This document shows positions 4,873 to 59,476 of a stretch of 64,000 bases of DNA, piece by piece. The position numbers and the translations under genes are program-made. The stretch's first letter is position 1, and each line of letters starts with the position of its first letter. The DNA is from Candidatus Heimdallarchaeum aukensis (GTDB lineage: Archaea; Asgardarchaeota; Heimdallarchaeia; Heimdallarchaeales; Heimdallarchaeaceae). The notes under the pieces were generated by a model. The model saw only the letters and a list, made by a program, of their open reading frames with translations. It made no database searches and was not told where the DNA came from. The stretch is taken from positions 768,001-832,000 of the forward strand of contig CP084166.1 in NCBI GenBank assembly GCA_021513695.1, given 5' to 3'.

Positions 4873-5835
4873 TTATTGGTTTATATATCCGTGCTCAATT
4901 ACACACTTATCAGCGTCTAGATTTAAAACACTTATAGTATACTTTTTGATGTCATCATAACTTGTACTCGTCTTATCTATAAGATCAGCGAGAATATCAA
5001 GCAACCTCCTAGCTTCCTCGTGACTTTCATCAGTTTTTATTACCAATCCAAAGATATGAGATTGTGAAGAACGGAGAATGAATTTATAGTCTTTAGACAT
5101 GATAAACTGAATAATATTTTGTTCATTGAAAGTTTTTTTTGCAAAAGTTTGTATAGCTGAGAGAAAACCAGAATAGAGAGATATTTTATCTGAAAGTTTT
5201 TTCTTTGAGATACTTAAAATTGGCAATCCATCTCTATCTGCAAGTAAAAAAGACTCAGGAGTAACTTTTCTTTTTTGAATAAGTTTAGATAACTGATTTT
5301 GTAACCAATATAGGACAGAATCAAAATTTTCTCCAGTTTGCATGCTTATCTTAAAAAATTGAAAAGAGGCATTTGGAATCATAGCGAGATTATATATTTC
5401 CACGGTATTGATAATTTCTTCCAGGTTCATACTATTTTCTAAATCTGCTTTGTTACACAGAAATAGAATTAGAAACTCATCTCCGTTATCTTTTAACTTT
5501 ATTGACTTCCAAAATTCTTCTTTTGCTTCAAGTAATGATTCTCTATCTGAAGAATCAATGATAAAAATTATCCCATAAGCTAACTTAATGTAATTTTCCC
5601 AGATAGTCTTTCTAAAAACTTCTTGTCCCCCTAAATCAAAAATATTTACTTTTAGATCAAATAGTTCATATTGTTCTAACTGAACCCCCATAGTTGGTTT
5701 AGGACTAGTGAATTTTCCTGTGAGAATTCTGTTAACAAAAGTAGTTTTTCCAGCATTAGGTAAACCTAAAATTACTAAAGGAATTCCTTTTTTCTCAAAA
5801 GAAAGTAGTTTTTCAGATATTTTCTTCTTACTCAA
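4873..5835 (-). CDS. Arf/Arl-like small GTPase fused to a C-terminal roadblock/longin-like domain
   Basis: G1 is GLPNAGKTT, G3 is DLGGQ, the Arf-like interswitch is WENYIKLAYGIIFIIDSSDRESLLEAKEEF, and G4 is NKAD. The C-terminal ~130 aa (FLLADRDGLPILSIS..SGFLSAIQTF..HIFGLVIKTD) fit a roadblock pattern. TTG start. Confidence 0.8.
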   Translation of the reverse strand: MSKKKISEKLLSFEKKGIPLVILGLPNAGKTTFVNRILTGKFTSPKPTMGVQLEQYELFDLKVNIFDLGGQEVFRKTIWENYIKLAYGIIFIIDSSDRESLLEAKEEFWKSIKLKDNGDEFLILFLCNKADLENSMNLEEIINTVEIYNLAMIPNASFQFFKISMQTGENFDSVLYWLQNQLSKLIQKRKVTPESFLLADRDGLPILSISKKKLSDKISLYSGFLSAIQTFAKKTFNEQNIIQFIMSKDYKFILRSSQSHIFGLVIKTDESHEEARRLLDILADLIDKTSTSYDDIKKYTISVLNLDADKCVIEHGYINQ

Positions 5836-5840
5836 TTTCG

Positions 5841-5856
5841 TTTAAACATGTTTAAA
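5841..5856. promoter_or_regulatory. perfect 16-bp palindrome TTTAAACATGTTTAAA just upstream of the Arf-like gene start
   Basis: The sequence is self-complementary, as read directly. It contains two opposed TTTAAA TATA-like hexamers and lies 6-21 nt from the TTG start at 5835, in a divergent intergenic region. Confidence 0.5.
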
Positions 5857-38242: not shown

Positions 38243-38788
38243 GTGATACAGAGGAACTACAAAATAATACTTATTGGAAATGCTCTTGTTGGAAAAACTG
38301 CTATTGTAACACGTTTTGCTAAAGATTACTTTGAACAGAACTATTTGAGAACGCTAGGAATCAATTACTACATAAAGACACAAGTAATTACTAATGTAGA
38401 AGTAAAGATGATTATTACAGACACCGCAGGACAAGAAGCGTTTCAACGCCTAAGAAGTTCGTATTACAAGGGGGCAAGAGGAGCAATAATTGTTTATGCA
38501 ATAAATGACAGACATAGCTTTGGACAAGTTGATTATTGGAAGAATGAAATGTTCAAGACTTTAAAAGAAATCCCAATAATAATTGTCGGAAATAAAATTG
38601 ACTTAATCGATCAAAGAAGAATATCAACAAGTGAAGGACGCTTGTTAGCGAAAAAATTGGGTTGTTTATTTATTGAATCATCTGCTAAAACAGGAGAAAA
38701 TATTGATAAAATCTTTGAAATGATAGTTAAAGATATACTAAGAAAAGATAATTTAATAACAGAAGAAAAAGAAGAAAGTTCTACTTAA
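38243..38788 (+). CDS. Rab-like small GTPase
   Basis: G1 is GNALVGKT, G3 is DTAGQE, then YYKGARGAIIVY, G4 is GNKIDL and G5 is SAKTGEN. There is no C-terminal Cys, so no prenylation motif. Confidence 0.85.
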   Translation: MIQRNYKIILIGNALVGKTAIVTRFAKDYFEQNYLRTLGINYYIKTQVITNVEVKMIITDTAGQEAFQRLRSSYYKGARGAIIVYAINDRHSFGQVDYWKNEMFKTLKEIPIIIVGNKIDLIDQRRISTSEGRLLAKKLGCLFIESSAKTGENIDKIFEMIVKDILRKDNLITEEKEESST

Positions 38789-50594: not shown

Positions 50595-52379
50595 ATGAGT
50601 GAAAACATTGTTCAATGGAATCTAAGCGATTTTTTTGATTCGATAAATGACCCGCGGATAGATAAGACAATATCAGAAATAGAAGAGAAAGTTGAAGATT
50701 TTGTCAAGAAAGCTAAAGGAAATTTACAAAAAATCGAACCAGCAAAGCTAAAAGAATTGTTTAAAGAATATGAAGAAATAAACGAAAAAAGTTTCTATCT
50801 GTCAGTTTATTCATACCTTGTATATTCTACTAATTCAATTGATGAAGAAGTAAAATCATTCTATGCAAAAATAGACGAGTTTTCAAGCAAAGTTTCTGAA
50901 AAAATGCTTTTCTTTGAAATTGAACTAAACACTATTTCAGATGAAGATTTTAAGAAACTTGTAGAAGCTCCTGAACTTAAAGAATATAAACACTTTTTAG
51001 AGTTTAATAGATTACAAAAACCTCATCAACTATCTGAAAAGGAAGAGCAGATAATCATAATGAAAGATCTAGTAGGCTCTAAAGCTTTTAATAAACTATA
51101 CACTGAAATCGTTTCTAGGTTTAGTTTTCAATTTGAATTGGATGGAGAAATAAAAACTTTAACTGGCCCTCAACTTATATCCTTACTTCAACATAAAGAC
51201 AGAGAAGTAAGAAAAAGAGCTTTACTTACCTATGTTGAAGCTTATAAGAACAACGAACTTGTTCTGACTCACATATATAATAACGTAATCAAGGATTTTG
51301 ATCTAGAAACAAAAAAACGTAACTATGAAAAACCAGTTCAACTTCGAAATCTAGAAAATGAGGTAGAAGATGAGATAGTAGAAGCACTAGAGAAAGCTAC
51401 AACAGAGAGCTACAAACCTTTAGTAGAACGTTATTACAATCTAAAAAAGAATATTCTAGGTTACGATGATTTGCATATGTATGATATTTATGCTCCTGTA
51501 GGCAATATAAATAAAGAATATGAATACGAAGAAGCAGTAGAAATAATAAAACAAGCAACAGAAAATTTTGATCCAGAGTTTAAAGAAATTGTTGAAAATA
51601 TGGTCAAAAAAGGACACATAGACCTTACTCCAAGGAGAGGAAAGGAAGGAGGAGCTTACTGCCACTATGGAAAGTTAAAGAATTATCCTTTTGTCTTTGT
51701 GAATTACACTAAGACCATTGATTCAGTCTTAACACTGGCACATGAGCTTGGACATGCGATACACTTTTACTACACACTAAAGAACCAAAATTATGTAAAT
51801 ATATTCCCAACAATACCTATGGCAGAAATAGCTTCAGTTTTCTGCGAGATAATGACTTTTGATTATCTAGTTAACCAGGATCTAAAAAAAGAAGAAAAAA
51901 TAGCTTTACTATGTACTCATCTAGAAGGAAATTTTGCCACTTCTCACAGACAAAACGCGTTTTATAGATTTGAAAAACAAATACATGAACTAATGAGCAA
52001 GAAACTCCCAAGCACAAAAGACTATGTAGATATTTTTACAAATGAAATGCAACTAATGTTTGGAAATGCAGTAGAAAAAATAAAAGAAGAATATTCACAT
52101 TATGCTTTCGTAGTAAATCATTTCTTACACACACCTTTCTACGTCTATGCATACAACATGTCTAATCTAATGGTAATAGCTTTATATCAACTATATCTAG
52201 AAAAAGGAAAAGAATACTTTATACCAAGATACAAAAAATTACTATCATCGGGAGGATCAGCAACACCACAAGAAATGCTAAAAGAATTCGAGATTGACTT
52301 GAAAGATGCTGAATTCTGGAAAAAAGGACTAAAGTACTTAGAAAGCAAAATAGATGAATTAGAAGAATTAATTAACTAA
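50595..52379 (+). CDS. pepF: oligoendopeptidase F (M3B)
   Basis: Contains the HELGHAIH zinc motif, and length and flanks are typical of PepF. I chose the internal ATG (MSENIVQWNLSDFF) because the track's GTG start at 50505 overlaps the previous gene. Confidence 0.85.
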   Translation: MSENIVQWNLSDFFDSINDPRIDKTISEIEEKVEDFVKKAKGNLQKIEPAKLKELFKEYEEINEKSFYLSVYSYLVYSTNSIDEEVKSFYAKIDEFSSKVSEKMLFFEIELNTISDEDFKKLVEAPELKEYKHFLEFNRLQKPHQLSEKEEQIIIMKDLVGSKAFNKLYTEIVSRFSFQFELDGEIKTLTGPQLISLLQHKDREVRKRALLTYVEAYKNNELVLTHIYNNVIKDFDLETKKRNYEKPVQLRNLENEVEDEIVEALEKATTESYKPLVERYYNLKKNILGYDDLHMYDIYAPVGNINKEYEYEEAVEIIKQATENFDPEFKEIVENMVKKGHIDLTPRRGKEGGAYCHYGKLKNYPFVFVNYTKTIDSVLTLAHELGHAIHFYYTLKNQNYVNIFPTIPMAEIASVFCEIMTFDYLVNQDLKKEEKIALLCTHLEGNFATSHRQNAFYRFEKQIHELMSKKLPSTKDYVDIFTNEMQLMFGNAVEKIKEEYSHYAFVVNHFLHTPFYVYAYNMSNLMVIALYQLYLEKGKEYFIPRYKKLLSSGGSATPQEMLKEFEIDLKDAEFWKKGLKYLESKIDELEELIN

Positions 52380-52546
52380 TTTTTTCTTTTTGTGAATTTC
52401 TTTAAAAAAGTATTTTGCATTCTAAAAAGCCAATTAGACCTATTAATTATAATTTGTGAAATTCTCCAAGGAAAAGAATACACATAATAACACCATAAAT
52501 AGAAAAATAATTAAATATAAAAATAAAGTATTTAATTAGAGTATTA

Positions 52547-53002
52547 ATGTCAGATATATCACTGTCCCTTACTGAAAAAGATAGTAGGAAACAAATGGAA
52601 GAGGAGTATAAAAGCCAACAGTTTGAAAGATTGCAAATTGCATCTGAAGAAGAAAATTCTATTAATACCATTTTAAAGAATGAAAACGTTTCAACTAAAA
52701 TTAGAGAAATAACTACAGCTATACCTATAATCAAATATAAAATAAACTTCTTAACAGATAATATTAAAGTTGTACACCTAAAAGACAAAAAAATCGAATC
52801 AGAAAAAATAAGCAATGAAATAAAAAAGTATGAAGAAACGGATGAAGATATTAGTGTAGAAAAAATAAAACCATTAATTCTTGAATATATAAAAAATAAA
52901 GAAGGTGTAAAAACTACAGAAATTATTGAACATTTCGATTTTGATACATGGTTAATATTAGAATCTCTAGATGAATTAAAAGAGGAAGGTATGATAGAAT
53001 AA
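52547..53002 (+). CDS. acidic protein with C-terminal winged-helix-like segment
   Basis: KPLILEYIKNKEGVKTTEIIEHFDFDTWLILESLDELKEEGMIE. Its stop abuts the next start at 53003. The antisense ORF 52447..53016 is low-complexity. Confidence 0.5.
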   Translation: MSDISLSLTEKDSRKQMEEEYKSQQFERLQIASEEENSINTILKNENVSTKIREITTAIPIIKYKINFLTDNIKVVHLKDKKIESEKISNEIKKYEETDEDISVEKIKPLILEYIKNKEGVKTTEIIEHFDFDTWLILESLDELKEEGMIE

Positions 53003-53212
53003 ATGACAGATATCACAAAAGAACTTAAACCAGGAGACAGATTTAGATTTGAACAGATAACTGTTCAAGCAAGAAAAATGTCTAAAGAAAAACTTGTGAG
53101 AGGAACTCAATCACATAAAGCTGTACTAGTTACTTTTAGCAAATCAGGAATAGTTTTTATAGACAAAACATGGAGGATTGCTAACAAAAGAGAAAGTGAT
53201 TATAGAAGGTGA
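53003..53212 (+). CDS. small hypothetical protein
   Basis: 69 aa, abutting the previous stop and overlapping the next ORF (coupled trio). Confidence 0.45.
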   Translation: MTDITKELKPGDRFRFEQITVQARKMSKEKLVRGTQSHKAVLVTFSKSGIVFIDKTWRIANKRESDYRR

Positions 53213-53690
53213 TAATATAACAAGAGAGGAAATAATAAATATAAGAATTGAAGAAGACTTAGACTTTGAAATTCAGCAATTAAATTTTAGCAGATACGAA
53301 GTAGAAGACGGAACTATATTAAGAATTTTAAATATACCAACAAAAATCTTTCGTTTAGCAGACTATGATAAACAAGGTTTTCCTGAGTATCTAGTTCAGC
53401 ACAAGAACATTGTTTCTGCTCTTGTTCCACAGGAGTTAAGAGGAGAAGCTTCTCATGAAATTTTTAACTTAAAAAAAGATAGAGTAGATATTATTGAATT
53501 TATTCCTCTAGAAGAGCCATTCAATGAGTTTAAATTGGGCGATGGAACTTTATTACGTATCAGACTTATAGTAAATCAAGTTTTTAAATCAGAAAAAAGA
53601 AACTACCTAGGAGAACCAATTTATGTAATAGACAGTTTAATTAGTATAACAAGGAAAATTCCAGATCATTTAAGAAAAAATAATTCATAA
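53178..53690 (+). CDS. hypothetical protein with an internal ~48-aa duplication
   Basis: FSRYEVEDGTILRILNIPTKIFRLADYDKQGFPEYLV aligns with FNEFKLGDGTLLRIRLIVNQVFKSEKRNYLGEPIYVI. The start may be GTG at 53193. Confidence 0.5.
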   Translation: MLTKEKVIIEGDNITREEIINIRIEEDLDFEIQQLNFSRYEVEDGTILRILNIPTKIFRLADYDKQGFPEYLVQHKNIVSALVPQELRGEASHEIFNLKKDRVDIIEFIPLEEPFNEFKLGDGTLLRIRLIVNQVFKSEKRNYLGEPIYVIDSLISITRKIPDHLRKNNS

Positions 53691-54261
53691 ACCACCGCTA
53701 TGTTTATCTAGTGCGCAAAAGTGTAACCCATGTCTATTGAGTGAACAACTCTTTAGAAAAAGAAAAAGAGAAAACACAAGTCACTAGCTTCAACAGTGAA
53801 GAGCTATCTATTGCTCTTAAGGAAAGGTGGGAAATTAGATAATAAACACAATATCAAAAACTCAATTCATAAATTCTTTTTTAAATTTTTATTAGAGGGC
53901 AGTAAACATTGGAAAATCTAACTTTTGTACAATTTTTTCTTTTTGCTGCAATGGTTTTTTTTCACCTCATTCTTCTAATAAGGGGTTCTATACAAAAAGC
54001 CACCACCTTTACGGCAGTGGAAAAAAGGTAAGCTTCCAGTGGAATAGCACTAAAAATAATACGCTTTTTAAATGCTTTTTCCAGCAAAGAACAATAATAT
54101 CTAAAAGTAAATTAAAAATCATAAATGCTGTTTATTCAATTATTTTGCTTTTATCCATTTTTGACCATTTATAATAAAAAATCAAGATATATCTAAAGGG
54201 TCTAATTCTAACAAAGAAGACCTCTTTCAATAAATAATTTTGGATTTTTTCAATTTTTAAC

Positions 54262-55224
54262 TTATTCATATTTTTCCTTTTTGCTTTTCTTAATTTGCCA
54301 AAATATTCTATTATTATATTCAACACGTTTTATTTTCTCTTTTTTCTCCATTTGCAAAAGTAAATCCATAATCTCATTCTTTGATACATTAGGGAATAGT
54401 GTAAATATTTGATCCTCTCTTAATGGATGCCTTTGTGTAATTTCTAAGATTATTTTTTCTGGTGAAGAATTTTTATCTATGTTTTCTACTAATAATTGAT
54501 CATAGTGAGCAATACTTTCAGCATTTAGTATTCTTAATGCTTCTTGTAGTCTTTCCGTTAGTGGAATTTTCACCCATTTCTCTGCAGGTGGTCTTATAGG
54601 GACATTAATGAATATTTTATCTGGTTGAATTTTATCAAAAATTCTTTTTAGAACTTTTAATGTATTATCATCATCATTAAGATCTTTGACAAGCATTAGT
54701 TCCAACCATAGTTGACCTGAAAAAATTTTTCTAAACTTAATCATACCTTCTGTTATTTTATCTAAGTCAAGTTCTTTTCTAGGTCGATTAATTCTTTTAA
54801 ATAGCTCTTTGTTTGGAGCATCTAAAGTAGGTAAAACAAAATCTGCTTTACTAATTTCTTTTCTCACTTCTGCTTCACATAATAAAGCTCCATTAGTAAT
54901 AACTGCAATAGGTATTTGACTAATCTTCTTAAGTTCACTTATTAGTTCTCCTAATCCCTTGTATAGAGTGGGTTCACCGTCTCCCACTATTGTTATAACA
55001 TCAATGTCTAATTTTTCTAGAAGAGCTCTTCTTACTTCATCAACTATATCTAATACAGGATAGAACATCTTTCTTGTATTGGTATAATTTGTTGTTCTCC
55101 CTAATTGACAGTAAACACAGCTAAAGTTACAAGTTTTTGATGGAATAGGGCTGATTCCCAATGAACGCCCTAATCTTCTAGAAGGAACAGGTCCGAAAAC
55201 ATATTTATATTCTTGCTTACTCAT
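54262..55224 (-). CDS. radical SAM protein with C-terminal winged-helix-like tail
   Basis: FGPVPSRRLGRSLGISPIPSKTCNFSCVYCQLGRT (CxxxCxxC), GDGEPTLY. Confidence 0.8.
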   Translation of the reverse strand: MSKQEYKYVFGPVPSRRLGRSLGISPIPSKTCNFSCVYCQLGRTTNYTNTRKMFYPVLDIVDEVRRALLEKLDIDVITIVGDGEPTLYKGLGELISELKKISQIPIAVITNGALLCEAEVRKEISKADFVLPTLDAPNKELFKRINRPRKELDLDKITEGMIKFRKIFSGQLWLELMLVKDLNDDDNTLKVLKRIFDKIQPDKIFINVPIRPPAEKWVKIPLTERLQEALRILNAESIAHYDQLLVENIDKNSSPEKIILEITQRHPLREDQIFTLFPNVSKNEIMDLLLQMEKKEKIKRVEYNNRIFWQIKKSKKEKYE

Positions 55225-55556
55225 TAATTATTAAATCTTAAATTTATTAATATCTCTTTATGTATAACAAAAAACATCTTTCGCATTTTTGATTATCGAA
55301 GGTCCTTTCAATTCCCTCTGTATTACAAATATTTACACTAGCAATACTTTTGAGATTTTTCTCACTTGTTTTGAATATTATTTCTCTTTTCTAAATCTTT
55401 TTTTTTTATTTTTTTAATATCTGAATAAATATCAGATTATTTACAGAAAAAAAATTTTTTAATGGTCTTATTTTATTAGGAATTGGCGTTCTTTTTTGTA
55501 GTAAAAAAACAAATAAAACACTAATATTTAAAGTATCATGGAAAAAGGTTAGTTAA

Positions 55557-56090
55557 ATGACAAAAACAATTAATACTTGCAAGATTGTTATTGTTGGCGA
55601 TAAAGGAGTGGGAAAAACATCACTAGTCCATAGCCTAGTCGGGAAAGAAAAAATAATTAAAATTACTCCTGGGGTGAAAATAGAAAATATGCTAGTAGAT
55701 TTAGGTGAAAATATTACTGCAGACGTTGTTTTCTGGAATTTAGAAGAAGATCCTCATTTTAGATTTTTTCAACAAGATGTTCTAGAATGTCCAAATATTG
55801 TCTTATTAGTATATGATCTAAACAACTTTAGTTCTTTATTACACTTAGAAAATGAATGTCTTCCAATGTTTGAGAAAAATGACACATTAAAAAAATCTAC
55901 ACCGATTCTGATTGGTAATAAAATTGATCTAGGACAATCAATAAATGATAAGGTAATAGAAGATTTTATACAAAAATATGGAATTCCATCTTTCAAAATT
56001 TCTGTTAAAGAAAAAATCAACATTGAAGAAGTAGCTAACGCAACAATTGAGATAGTAAAGTCTTATTATAAGAAGAAAAAACAAAGTTAA
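55557..56090 (+). CDS. Ras-superfamily small GTPase-like protein with degenerate G3 (switch II)
   Basis: G1 GDKGVGKTS and G4 GNKIDL are intact. Where DxxGQ is expected the sequence reads VVFWNLEEDP. Confidence 0.7.
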   Translation: MTKTINTCKIVIVGDKGVGKTSLVHSLVGKEKIIKITPGVKIENMLVDLGENITADVVFWNLEEDPHFRFFQQDVLECPNIVLLVYDLNNFSSLLHLENECLPMFEKNDTLKKSTPILIGNKIDLGQSINDKVIEDFIQKYGIPSFKISVKEKINIEEVANATIEIVKSYYKKKKQS

Positions 56091-56340
56091 CTAATTGATT
56101 TATTGTCAAACATTGTTTAGTCATTCATTTCATATTTTATAGCAATATTGATTTTTATTTGCGTATTTTTCTGTATAGGATCGATTCATTGAGCCATTGC
56201 TATAATGAATTGTAGAGAAATAGTTTATTCAATAATAATAGTTTGTTCATCAGCACCTTTCTTTTCAATTTCACCAATTTTTTTAACTATAATAAAGATG
56301 AATTTCTAAAAAAGTTTGAGGTCAAATTAAAAGAAAGTAA

Positions 56341-56703
56341 CTATTTTGGATATTTTTTCTTGTTTTTTTGTAATTTATTTATTATAGCTTCTTCTAAATT
56401 TATTCCTAGGATTTCAGAAAGAGCTAATAAATATATTGCCACATCTGCAAGCTCGTCAGATAAATTATTCTTATATTGTTCACTAGCTAATTCGTTAAAT
56501 ATTTCTTCATCTGTTTTCCATTGAAAAAGCTCAAAAAGTTCTGCTAACTCTATTGCAATAGATAAAGACAGATTCTTTGGGGTATGATATTTTTTCCAAT
56601 CTCTCTCGTCTCTAAATTCTACTATTTTTTTAGTCAATTCTTCAATAGTTGTCAATTTAATCAAAATAAAAAAGAGAAGGGTTAGATAATTTTTTCTATC
56701 CAA
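56341..56703 (-). CDS. MazG-type nucleotide pyrophosphohydrolase (dCTP pyrophosphatase-like)
   Basis: FRDERDWKKYHTPKNLSLSIAIELAELFELFQW and ELADVAIYLLALS. The start is uncertain: the ATG at 56703 overlaps ilvE by 22 nt, and a TTG at 56655 is an alternative. Confidence 0.8.
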   Translation of the reverse strand: MDRKNYLTLLFFILIKLTTIEELTKKIVEFRDERDWKKYHTPKNLSLSIAIELAELFELFQWKTDEEIFNELASEQYKNNLSDELADVAIYLLALSEILGINLEEAIINKLQKNKKKYPK

Positions 56704-57752: not shown

Positions 57753-57975
57753 TGTAAAAAAGAGTTAAATTATTCGTTTAAAAGCTTTTATATCCGAAAT
57801 GGAGAAAATAATAACTATTTAGTTGTCAGACTGCAAGTAGAAGAAAAAATAAATGAAACAAATGTGAAGAGTAAATAGCTCAATGTAATTTTAGTAATTT
57901 TTTCTAGAAACAAATCTTGCTCTAGGAATAAATAAGAGATAAAGATATAGTCATTACAAAAAAGAGAACAGAGAA

Positions 57976-58097
57976 CCTTTCAACCACAGAAACTAAAGAA
58001 ATAGTTTTTCAACCAAACAAAAAAGATAATTGGAGAATAAGAACAAAACGAGAAAAAGAAATCTTTCAACCTTAAAAATCTTTGAAATATCTTTGAA
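57976..58097. promoter_or_regulatory. cluster of repeated motifs (TTTCAACC x3; ATCTTTSAA x3) in a 508-bp ORF-free spacer
   Basis: The decamers ending in TTTCAACC start at 57976, 58005 and 58062, giving spacings of 29 and 57 nt. ATCTTTCAA is at 58061. ATCTTTGAA is at 58078 and 58089, an 11-nt period. Confidence 0.45.
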
Positions 58098-58260
58098 TTA
58101 AGAGCAATTCTTCTAGTATTAGGATTATAAATTTGTTAACAGTTATAAAATATTTTTGAAATCGTCAGACATAATATTTAAGGATAAAAATTAGATACGT
58201 TTAAAAATATATTTAATAAATATATTATTCAGAAATAACAAAAGCAGATACATTAATCAT

Positions 58261-59427
58261 ATGCTGCATAGTAGCTTTGTACTAAAAAATCAAAAAAGTG
58301 AAAATATGAAAGGCAAAAGAATAGTTAACTTTTCTAGTTGTTTTCTATTATGTTTAGTGATTTTCTCAATTTCAACAATTGGATCTTCTGACGAAATTGT
58401 GGAAAGAGAGGAAAGACTTTCAAGTTCAGATATTTATCTAGCAGAGGAAACAAATACATTGTACATTACATCATCAGATGAAAATATTTTATATGTTTTC
58501 AGTACTCAATCACTAGAGATACAACAAACTATTGAATATGATTCGCCAATAACACATCATATTTCAAGGATTTTTTCTTTTGGTGACGAGCTCTTTCTCT
58601 TTAATTACAACTCTAGCAATTTAGCTGTTTTAAAAATAGATCCTGATTATTCAGTAAATTTACTTTCATTCACTCAAGATTATATTCCTATTAACTATGA
58701 CTGCATTTTTAGTTATCTTGAATATATTGGTTTTATTTCTAATGAAAACAAATTAATTTTATTTTCACCTACAAATCAAAGTCTCATAGATACAGGAATT
58801 ATCATTCCTAACATAAATTTTGTTACTTCTTGTAATGAAACAATTATTGTATACAATACTTTTCAATCTTCTAGTTACAAACAATTCGTCTTTTATGATA
58901 TATTAAAGAAAAAAATCTTAGCTAATTACACTTACAATAACACAAATGTTAAACTTTCGTATCTTCCTGAAGAACATGCTTTTGCAGCGCTCTACACCTC
59001 AGCTAATAATGTCTCTATTTTCTCTACTAAAGGAGATTTCCAAAGAAATATTACAATAAATTTAGAAGAAGAAATACTTACACCAATATTTGAAAGTTCT
59101 GGAAATTGGTTCTTTGCCTCGTATGAACATTTCTATCATTATTCTAATAACAAATCAACAGAGTTACTGACTTATAATAGTAAATTATTGTCCTTTGTTA
59201 CTATAAAAAAAGTTCTAACACAAGATTCTGTTCATATTTTTATATCCACACCTTATTATACATATTTGTATGATATAAATGAAGATTCTTTTTATGCATT
59301 ATACAAAATAACAACTGAATTAATTATAAATAATAATAGTAAAAGAATCTACTTCATTGATTTTGGATTGATAGCAGCAACAATAATGTTTGGAGCAGGA
59401 GTCATTTATTACTTGGTGAAGAAATGA
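58261..59427 (+). CDS. secreted/surface protein with C-terminal TM anchor
   Basis: Signal-like FSSCFLLCLVIFSISTIG, with the likely true start MKGKRIV at 58306. It has many NxS/T sequons and a C-terminal FGLIAATIMFGAGVIYYLVKK. Confidence 0.6.
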   Translation: MLHSSFVLKNQKSENMKGKRIVNFSSCFLLCLVIFSISTIGSSDEIVEREERLSSSDIYLAEETNTLYITSSDENILYVFSTQSLEIQQTIEYDSPITHHISRIFSFGDELFLFNYNSSNLAVLKIDPDYSVNLLSFTQDYIPINYDCIFSYLEYIGFISNENKLILFSPTNQSLIDTGIIIPNINFVTSCNETIIVYNTFQSSSYKQFVFYDILKKKILANYTYNNTNVKLSYLPEEHAFAALYTSANNVSIFSTKGDFQRNITINLEEEILTPIFESSGNWFFASYEHFYHYSNNKSTELLTYNSKLLSFVTIKKVLTQDSVHIFISTPYYTYLYDINEDSFYALYKITTELIINNNSKRIYFIDFGLIAATIMFGAGVIYYLVKK

Positions 59428-59476
59428 GTAACTTAATTTACAGCTAGTGAAAAGAAAGTGTTAAAAAAAGTATAAA

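Follow-up and report, generated by a model that had tools for sequence, protein, structure and literature searches.

A Ras-like GTPase with a degraded switch II motif beside a pseudogenised partner gene in Candidatus Heimdallarchaeum: a candidate archaeal pseudoGTPase

Introduction

PseudoGTPases are proteins with a GTPase fold in which at least one G motif is degraded, and they are grouped into those that do not bind nucleotide (class i), those that bind nucleotide without catalysis (class ii) and those with residual catalysis (class iii) (Stiegler and Boggon, PMC5593906). They have been described almost entirely from eukaryotes, and no paper on an archaeal pseudoGTPase was found by full-text search. 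Here, a small Ras-like GTPase gene of Candidatus (Ca.) Heimdallarchaeum aukensis was analyzed, in which the G3 motif is degraded and next to which lies the remnant of a former partner gene. The gene occupies positions 55557..56090 (+ strand) of a 64,000-nucleotide stretch of contig CP084166.1 (positions 768,001 to 832,000 of the forward strand), called the window below. The reading that we prefer, and to which we give a probability of about one in two, is that its product would be an orphaned, non-cycling pseudoGTPase that binds guanine nucleotide, does not hydrolyse GTP and is independent of a former partner with a TRAPPC3/V4R fold.

Rnd1-3, which belong to class ii, resemble this protein in their Ras fold, in the retention of the nucleotide-binding motifs and in degradation near switch II and at the positions of Ras residues 12 and 61, and a fixed state is expected. 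They differ in that the Asp and the Gly of DxxG are still present, that their effectors are known and that their conservation extends throughout the vertebrates; the Heimdallarchaeum GTPase has lost the switch II Gly as well as the Walker-B Asp, is limited to one archaeal genus and is weakly constrained. Beyond membership of the superfamily, no specific sequence relationship was seen between them.

In MglA/MglB pairs, as here, a small Ras-like GTPase gene stands beside the gene of a presumed regulator; the G3 motif of MglA is non-canonical (TxxGQ), yet MglA is an active switch. The partner at the loci described below, a protein that we call X, is not a roadblock or longin protein. V4R domains, to whose fold part of X is predicted to belong, more often bind small ligands. 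The pairing of Rab and TRAPP in eukaryotes, and the TRAPPC3 protein of Thorarchaeota (PDB 7yh2, PMC10933270), differ from the present case in that no longin subunits were seen here, that the TRAPPC3-fold domain occurs together with a novel CxC..HxDH domain, in one protein or in two, and that X is present in the window as a pseudogene remnant only. As a rule, Asgard GTPases do not share an operon with genes for roadblock, longin or TRAPPC3 proteins, so that regulators are difficult to assign to them (Tran et al., PMC10933270).

Results

The gene encodes a Ras-superfamily G domain

The open reading frame (ORF) starts with ATG and encodes 177 aa in 534 nt. Its product is 100% identical to UJG41514.1 ('GTP-binding protein', Ca. 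H. aukensis), an exact match to P0153 (proteins and loci of the analysis carry P and L numbers), and 99% identical to UJG44317.1 of Ca. H. endolithica. UJG41514.1 is a Ras-superfamily G domain: Pfam Ras was matched at 3e-15 (56.6 bits, cut-off 21.6), Roc and Arf also matched, and TIGR00231 small_GTP (NCBIfam) scored 45.8 bits (cut-off 42.5). A phmmer search of the PDB returned Rab7/Ypt7 (best, 3e-11), Rab35 and KRas chains at 3e-11 to 2e-8. An AlphaFold2 (AF2) model built with 88 homologs had the canonical G-domain topology, with a mean predicted local distance difference test (pLDDT) of 88.8 and a predicted template modelling score (pTM) of 0.86. Foldseek with this model placed KRas and Rab8 at the top (E ~1e-13, TM 0.73-0.81).

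Membership of the Rab family was considered and rejected. The protein ends without the prenylatable C-terminal Cys (tail YYKKKKQS), the stretches equivalent to RabF motifs are weak (PGVKIE, FRFFQQ and LLVYDLN), and its Pfam Ras score compares with 179 bits for a canonical Rab-like paralog in the same window; published phylogenies have recovered no true Rabs among Asgard archaea. That paralog, a canonical Rab/Ras-like GTPase at 38243-38788 (+ strand) with GNALVGKT, DTAGQ, NKID and SAK, served as an internal positive control. An Arf or ArfR identity was rejected as well, as there is no N-terminal amphipathic helix (eight residues precede strand β1) and Pfam Arf scored 33 bits, below Pfam Ras.

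G3 is degraded while the other G motifs are kept

All motifs given here lie on the + strand. The P-loop (G1, G14-DKGVGK-T21, 55596..55619) was located by regular expression; GxxxxGK[ST] is intact, with Lys16 at the position of Ras Gly12. This column is invariantly Gly in the protein's family (GDG[GA]VGKT) and the GTPase alone deviates from it. The switch-I (G2) Thr37 (55665..55667) is kept, was aligned by phmmer on the Thr of Rab7/Ypt7 and is invariant in an 88-sequence alignment. G4 (N121-K-I-D124, 55917..55928) is intact, K122 and D124 being invariant and N121 nearly so among the 88 homologs. G5 (S149-V-K151, 56001..56009) falls on the SAK of Rab7/Ypt7; S149 is invariant, and Val replaces the Ala of a motif that is mostly SAK in the family. 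At the start of switch II, by contrast, where the family has W-D-x-[GA]-G-Q, the protein reads W60-N-L-E-E-D65 (55734..55751), followed by Q67H. In Ras numbering the changes are G12K, D57N, A59E, G60E and Q61D. Relative to the nearest relative, the codon changes are GAC>AAT, GGT>GAA (twice), CAA>GAT, GGG>AAA (at Lys16), TGG>TGT and GCG>GTT. Sequence and family alignment also revealed a C-terminal polybasic run (K172-KKK175, 56070..56081), in place of which the tails of the closest relatives carry a Cys (..QCYE, ..SCYS, ..ACYS and ..GCD).

The original prediction, made from the sequence of the window, was of a Ras-like GTPase with intact P-loop and NKxD (GDKGVGKTS at residues 14-22, GNKIDL at 120-125) and with VVFWNLEEDP (57-66) where DxxGQ should lie. 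Both parts of it stand. G1, Thr37, G4 and G5 are present, and Pfam Ras, TIGR00231 and the AF2 model agree; NLEED was aligned on DxxGQ in the same register by phmmer against Rab7/Ypt7, by BLASTP against the paralog at 38243..38788, by MAFFT with 17 to 87 homologs and by alignment of 311 domains to a hidden Markov model (HMM). All of them support this register of G3. In the AF2 model, β3 spans residues 53-62 and helix α2 residues 66-75, and NLEED lies exactly at the junction of β3 and switch II. The possibility raised at the outset, of a shifted but intact DxxG, was searched for by regular expression; neither DxxG nor [DE]xxG occurs anywhere in the 177-aa protein, so there is no shifted G3 motif. 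The Lys at the Ras Gly12 position is a further degeneration that had been missed. NLEED was seen on no fewer than 10 contigs, which come from independent samples and from separate assemblies (NCBI, JGI, ENA and Logan). Given these contigs, the four agreeing alignments and the lack of DxxG, an artefact of sequencing, assembly or alignment, or a displaced intact G3, has a negligible probability.

A GTPase fold with a degraded G3 would place the protein among pseudoGTPases as they have been defined (PMC5593906), and the motifs that it keeps favour class ii.

Predicted consequences for nucleotide binding and hydrolysis

The Ras residues equivalent to those replaced here (G12, D57, A59, G60 and Q61) are needed for hydrolysis, intrinsic or assisted by a GTPase-activating protein (GAP), and for sensing the γ-phosphate and Mg, and Q61 orients the attacking water. 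This is established Ras biochemistry, one source for which is a deep mutational scan of KRAS (PMC11526993): any G12 substitution other than Pro blocks GAP-assisted hydrolysis, hydrolysis is impaired by Q61 substitutions, and at D57, A59 and G60 changes cause a loss of function in switch-dependent interactions.

GTP might still be hydrolysed by a non-canonical mechanism, as in class iii, in which the catalytic or Mg-coordinating groups come from elsewhere, with Lys16 acting in cis in the manner of an arginine or lysine finger, with Asp65 or Glu64 positioning the water, or with a GAP contributing a residue in trans, as RapGAP does for Rap. In RGK proteins, which are of this class, hydrolysis of GTP persists despite the divergence of several G motifs (PMC5593906). 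The P-loop Lys and Thr are kept here, as is the switch-I Thr, and DxxG without Gln is found in 64 of the 311 related domains, so Gln-independent chemistry is common among them. The Lys at the Ras-12 position is also present in P0002, P0039 and P0050, in which DxxG is intact. We nevertheless regard such activity as quite improbable: besides the Gln, the Walker-B Asp has gone and so has the switch II Gly, the effects of substitutions in Ras (PMC11526993) point the other way, NLEED occurs in no relative and so gives no sign of a selected alternative motif, and the likely regulator next door is dead.

Alternatively, the protein may be a functional interaction domain that binds no nucleotide (class i), like CENP-M or the pG1/pG2 domains of p190RhoGAP. 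Examples of this kind exist (PMC5593906), Asn replaces the Mg-coordinating Asp, and three consecutive acidic residues together with the Lys crowd the γ-phosphate pocket. However, GxxxxGKT, the switch-I Thr, NKxD and the Ser and Lys of G5 are all kept, though they would be free to decay if nothing were bound, and the known class i proteins are without several of these motifs (PMC5593906); a class i protein is therefore very unlikely.

The degenerate state arose recently within a canonical family

A word-indexed search of 5.8 billion proteins returned the near-identical cluster and one weak eukaryotic match only, and an exhaustive HMMER scan of 1.84 billion cluster representatives returned 3001 relatives. 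The top matches of the latter (5e-27 to 2.5e-19, 34-41% identity) included single-domain proteins of similar length, all of which carry WD[LIF]GGQxQFRFFQ. With a profile of this family, about 18 clusters were matched at E values between 1e-74 and 5e-51, and no further match came before 2e-37. The GTPase itself was matched over its full length at E 2e-64, a value that is partly circular because the GTPase is one of the six profile sequences; independent support for membership comes from the single-sequence search, among whose top matches are canonical members. These proteins form a compact family, defined in this analysis and named after its signature 'WDxGGQxQFRFFQ', in Heimdallarchaeaceae and other metagenome-assembled genomes (MAGs) of Heimdall and Loki type. 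Its members include P0161, P0163, P0003 and P0005, the last of which is named 'Rab family GTPase' in NCBI. The family lies within the Asgard Ras-superfamily expansions of Klinger et al. and Vargova et al., which have been described as RasL/ArfL and 'divergent offshoots' (bioRxiv 10.1101/2024.02.28.582541).

The GTPase is 32-55% identical to the family over its full length but is itself without the signature and reads WNLEEDPHFRFFQ instead of WDxGGQxQFRFFQ. In the MAFFT alignment, D-x-[GA]-G-Q is present in 20 of the 20 other members, and NLEED in the Heimdallarchaeum cluster only; the departure from the motif is not a matter of chance. Where the nearest relative, P0161 (52-55% identity), has ADVVFWDLGGQQQFRFFQED, the GTPase has ADVVFWNLEEDPHFRFFQQD; a different motif stands between preserved flanks. 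By leave-one-out comparison, the GTPase departs from the family at 8 of the 29 columns that are at least 90% conserved (G16K, D61N, G64E, Q65D, Q67H, R90N, Y91F and W101C, with G63E in addition), whereas other members depart at 0-3 columns, and conservatively. The 21 family-conserved columns that it keeps include all G1, G2, G4 and G5 contacts. In length, in the FRFFQ helix and in its convergent arrangement with the partner X, the GTPase resembles its parent family; it differs in that it alone carries these changes (Y91F aside), in its dead partner and in its polybasic tail.

The original prediction had raised the possibility of a conserved Asgard subfamily, which was not found: in the word-indexed, exhaustive HMMER and family-profile searches alike, NLEED was confined to one 90%-identity cluster of six proteins, from Ca. 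H. aukensis, Ca. H. endolithica and Heimdallarchaeaceae MAGs. Since all other family members are canonical and NLEED occurs in this single cluster, the degenerate state is derived, recent and limited to the genus Heimdallarchaeum. Loss of G3 is, at the same time, recurrent rather than unique in the sampled G domains. Of the 311 domains in the HMM alignment, 217 have DxxGQ and about 20 a degenerate G3; these sporadic cases are Asgard and eukaryotic, and many stand in tandem-GTPase proteins. Examples from unrelated Asgard or metagenomic domains (the Hodarchaeota protein MFX0108875.1, which is P0033, and P0050, P0034 and P0072) read EFGTQ, WVYFDD/WNISGD, YEIKIT and FSEAEM, EFGTQ being that of the Hodarchaeota protein.

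The parent family is linked to a protein with a predicted TRAPPC3/V4R fold

In related loci, the family GTPase is accompanied by X, a protein of 225 aa with a CxC..HxDH N-domain and a C-domain of predicted TRAPPC3/Bet3/V4R fold; Foldseek support for the domain match was weak. The X family is well conserved, comprises 32 matches, is without Pfam annotation, and has C8, C10, H39, D41 and H42 invariant. A second protein, X' (155 aa), has an N-domain homologous to that of X (hhalign probability 96.8%, E 2e-10); the relationship was significant with deeper profiles only, phmmer and hhalign with two sequences each being negative or weak.

An intact X or X' was found within 2 kb of the GTPase in L004 (779-1456, - strand), L013 (6546-7214, - strand), L093 (7113-7805, + strand), L012 (8066-8719, + strand), L091 (5552-6689), L092 (5717-6874), L015 and, twice, L018 (4416-5445 and 7367-8400). 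The arrangement varies: P0161 and the GTPase of L013 are convergent with X; for P0166 and in L012, X lies ~1.6 kb downstream of the GTPase, and in L093 an amino-acid permease gene stands between the two. For P0003 and P0005, in L015 and in both copies of L018, X' follows the GTPase and is followed in turn, except in L015, by a V4R-like gene; in L018 the whole triad of GTPase, X' and V4R-like gene is tandemly duplicated. The V4R-like gene matched Pfam V4R in four of four copies, below the gathering score, and its best PDB sequence match was the TRAPPC3 of Thorarchaeota. No homology of the X C-domain with the V4R-like gene was detected by comparison of sequence profiles (hhalign probability 0.3%), and it is the predicted fold alone that suggests a link between them. 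The GTPase family is thus accompanied by an X domain together with a TRAPPC3/V4R-fold domain; the two are fused in one subclade and encoded by separate genes in another.

In L092, a 496-519-aa protein with an N-terminal Arf/RagA-like G domain is encoded directly upstream of P0003 (3055-4614, + strand), and two different GTPases thus stand beside the X' and V4R-like genes of that locus.

The partner is a pseudogene in Heimdallarchaeum

A remnant of X, called ψ-X, was found in the window at 56108-56371 (- strand) by tblastn and with the X-family HMM. It contains five in-frame stops and matches residues ~128-217 of the 225 of X at 37% identity, which is part of the TRAPPC3/V4R-fold domain; the N-terminal ~128 aa are gone. 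The tblastn E value was 7e-8 across several loci and 2e-13 locally, and the HMM gave a single match in the six-frame translation of the 64 kb (32 bits, E 2.5e-11), the next being at E ~1. ψ-X lies immediately downstream of the GTPase and convergent with it, as intact X does in L004 and L013, in what appeared to be an intergenic spacer, outside the ORFs of at least 50 aa listed there. Its 5' end, beyond ~56300, is Lys-rich and less certain, and overlaps the end of the neighbouring MazG-like gene.

ψ-X is present in every contig of the genus. Two stops are common to all, and each lineage has lesions of its own: aukensis has lost 3 nt and gained a TGA, endolithica has gained a TAA, 2 nt are deleted in L008, L009 and L010, and larger deletions are found in L009 (107 nt) and L010 (51 nt). 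No homolog of X was found on either Heimdallarchaeum chromosome, and the family-profile search returned no second family member on contigs of at least 3 Mb. As ψ-X adjoins the GTPase in convergent orientation and the chromosomes hold neither X nor a second family GTPase, the GTPase is the syntenic ortholog of the canonical family GTPases, and its partner X is dead. A spare paralog freed by duplication was rejected as an explanation, in view of the lack of a second member and of the orthology indicated by the synteny with ψ-X.

The reading frame is uninterrupted and its sequence weakly constrained

Among seven sequences of the genus, no indel event was counted in the 534 nt of the ORF, against five in ~260 nt of ψ-X and about four in the 332 nt of the upstream spacer. 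The probability of finding none in the ORF is ~3e-4 at equal rates, and ~0.01-0.04 when scaled for the lower local diversity (0.0185 at synonymous sites around the gene vs 0.027-0.057 in the flanks). Neither stop nor indel was seen in five DNA alleles on at least 10 contigs; stops occupy 5 of 89 codons in ψ-X and 0 of 177 in the GTPase. For the same pair of sequences, the substitution rate was 0.017 in the ORF, 0.057 in ψ-X and 0.027 in the upstream spacer. The GTPase lineage has 21-29 unique substitutions and its sister 8-18 (Tajima p from 0.5 to 0.0006, depending on the outgroup); because this acceleration is only modest, neutral decay of the whole gene is unlikely. The changes in conserved columns cluster at the γ-phosphate, Mg and catalytic site and in helix α3, and the contacts to the base and to the α- and β-phosphates survive. 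The absence of indels and stops from the ORF argues for continuing selection, and on the reading that we prefer the gene would still be under some selection, the estimate of constraint coming from 10 segregating sites.

Several observations weigh against an orphaned but selected, nucleotide-binding pseudoGTPase. The 10 segregating sites comprise seven non-synonymous and three synonymous changes, a ratio of non-synonymous to synonymous rates (ω) of ~0.6; for aukensis vs L005 the counts are 7:2 and ω is ~0.9. The three neighbours gave 0.17-0.35 (radical-SAM), 0.09-0.18 (MazG-like) and 0.04-0.06 (branched-chain aminotransferase), with Fisher p of 0.002-0.006 against the GTPase. An ω of 0.1 or less was rejected (p = 0.007) and an ω of 1 was not, so that the amino-acid sequence may be under little constraint or none. 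The comparison of aukensis with endolithica is uninformative in this respect, as it offers a single difference and the gene lies inside a 99.8% identical block. Most of the radical codon changes include GC-to-AT steps, although several include A-to-T and CAA>GAT a C-to-G step; under GC-to-AT pressure at released sites, in a genome of 30% GC (the window has ~30%), the acidic EED need not be adaptive. Only a single shallow clade, whose proteins share at least 96% identity, is known to have the degenerate form. Finally, the Asn in place of the Walker-B Asp, with the three acidic side chains, could abolish the binding of Mg2+ and GTP, as in class i.

The same observations bear on the possibility that the gene is a non-functional relic, an as yet uninterrupted ORF that drifts towards pseudogenisation after the GTPase-X module was dismantled. 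Partner X is already a pseudogene, the conserved gene context of the family is lost, ω within the genus exceeds that of all three neighbours, the segregating changes include radical ones (E51K, G142R and I138K), the replacements at invariant sites run in the direction of the GC-to-AT mutation bias, and the degenerate state is limited to one genus. Set against this are the uninterrupted 534 nt beside the ~9 indel events and new stops of ψ-X and the spacer, the retention of 21 of 29 conserved positions and all binding motifs with the changes clustered at one functional site, the modest acceleration of the branch and the lower rate of the ORF, and the confident AF2 fold. A relic is, on balance, unlikely. 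The original prediction had pointed to eukaryotic proteins of this kind that act as constitutive scaffolds or regulators; such a role is not supported here, where the 7:3 sites are far more relaxed than the neighbours and partner X is pseudogenised.

Genomic neighbourhood

The gene order in the genus is radical-SAM (-), GTPase (+), MazG-like (-), an insertion sequence (IS200/IS605) in some strains, and branched-chain aminotransferase (-), an order that on first inspection has nothing in common with the other loci of the family. The IS200/IS605 element (Y1 transposase and TnpB/OrfB) lies between the MazG-like and aminotransferase genes in L001 (11099-12663), L002, L003, L009 and L010, and is absent from the window (H. 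aukensis), L005 and L008; its TnpB ORF has 275 aa in L001 and 403 aa elsewhere.

Between the window and L001 (Ca. H. endolithica, CP084167.1), identity reaches 99.8% over a block of ~2.2 kb (54001-56162 of the window) that takes in the GTPase, the spacer and the radical-SAM gene, whereas its flanks are 84-94% identical between aukensis and endolithica. Such a contrast points to recent recombination or to gene flow between these two named species of the genus. The segments 52373-53908 and 57755-59464 are without counterpart at the syntenic H. endolithica locus L001; small ORFs lie at 52547-53690, and a predicted membrane or secreted protein of 388 aa at 58261-59427 is also present in L008-L010.

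A TTTAAA box at 55527-55532, centred ~27 nt before the GTPase ATG, would fit a leaderless archaeal transcript. A scan for promoters and terminators gave nothing notable, the scan being of the bacterial type and not meaningful for an archaeal host. Elsewhere in the window, a 322-aa stop-to-stop ORF (4876-5841, - strand) with a P-loop (GLPNAGKT) and NKxD is probably a larger GTPase of the translation-factor or Obg/DRG type.

Discussion

The course of events that we propose starts from an ancestor within the WDxGGQxQFRFFQ family of Heimdall and Loki archaea, genomically coupled to X. In the genus Heimdallarchaeum, the X gene was truncated and pseudogenised. The residues that sense or attack the γ-phosphate (Ras G12, D57, A59, G60 and Q61) gave way to K, N, E, E and D, and those that hold the guanine and the α- and β-phosphates (the P-loop Lys and Thr, NKxD, and the Ser and Lys of G5) were kept. 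From these motifs we infer that guanine nucleotide may still be bound, that GTP would not be hydrolysed at a useful rate and that the canonical switch II transition would not take place. The GTPase may then act in a fixed state, independent of its regulator, and the new polybasic tail may, speculatively, bind acidic membranes or partners without one. The loss of both functions would be coherent in either order: a non-cycling GTPase needs neither a guanine-nucleotide exchange factor nor a GAP, and a GTPase without its regulator is useful only if fixed.

The linkage of the parent family with X and TRAPPC3/V4R-fold domains may matter more than the pseudoGTPase itself. It is an exception to the general absence of such gene neighbours in Asgard archaea (PMC10933270), and it offers a candidate match of GTPase and regulator from genome layout. 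A bolder proposal would be that the parent family and X constitute an unrecognised archaeal GTPase-regulator module, the first pairing by genome layout of an Asgard Ras-like GTPase with a TRAPP-fold protein, and that Heimdallarchaeum is a natural double lesion of it; we put this forward as a doubtful, if attractive, possibility. If it holds, the double lesion would show the mutual dependence of the two proteins, and a GTPase freed from its TRAPP-like regulator would have become constitutive and non-cycling.

Were the GTPase an inert relic, the locus would be a case of ordinary module decay. If the orphaned pseudoGTPase that we favour is real, the origin of a pseudoGTPase could be followed closely in the archaeal lineage that stands nearest to eukaryotes, at a locus for which canonical sisters (at the 52-55% identity given above), a decaying ancestral partner and natural alleles are all available. 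Together with a GTPase-X module, should that also hold, it would provide a prokaryotic precedent both for the relationship of Rab and TRAPP and for the evolution of pseudoGTPases.

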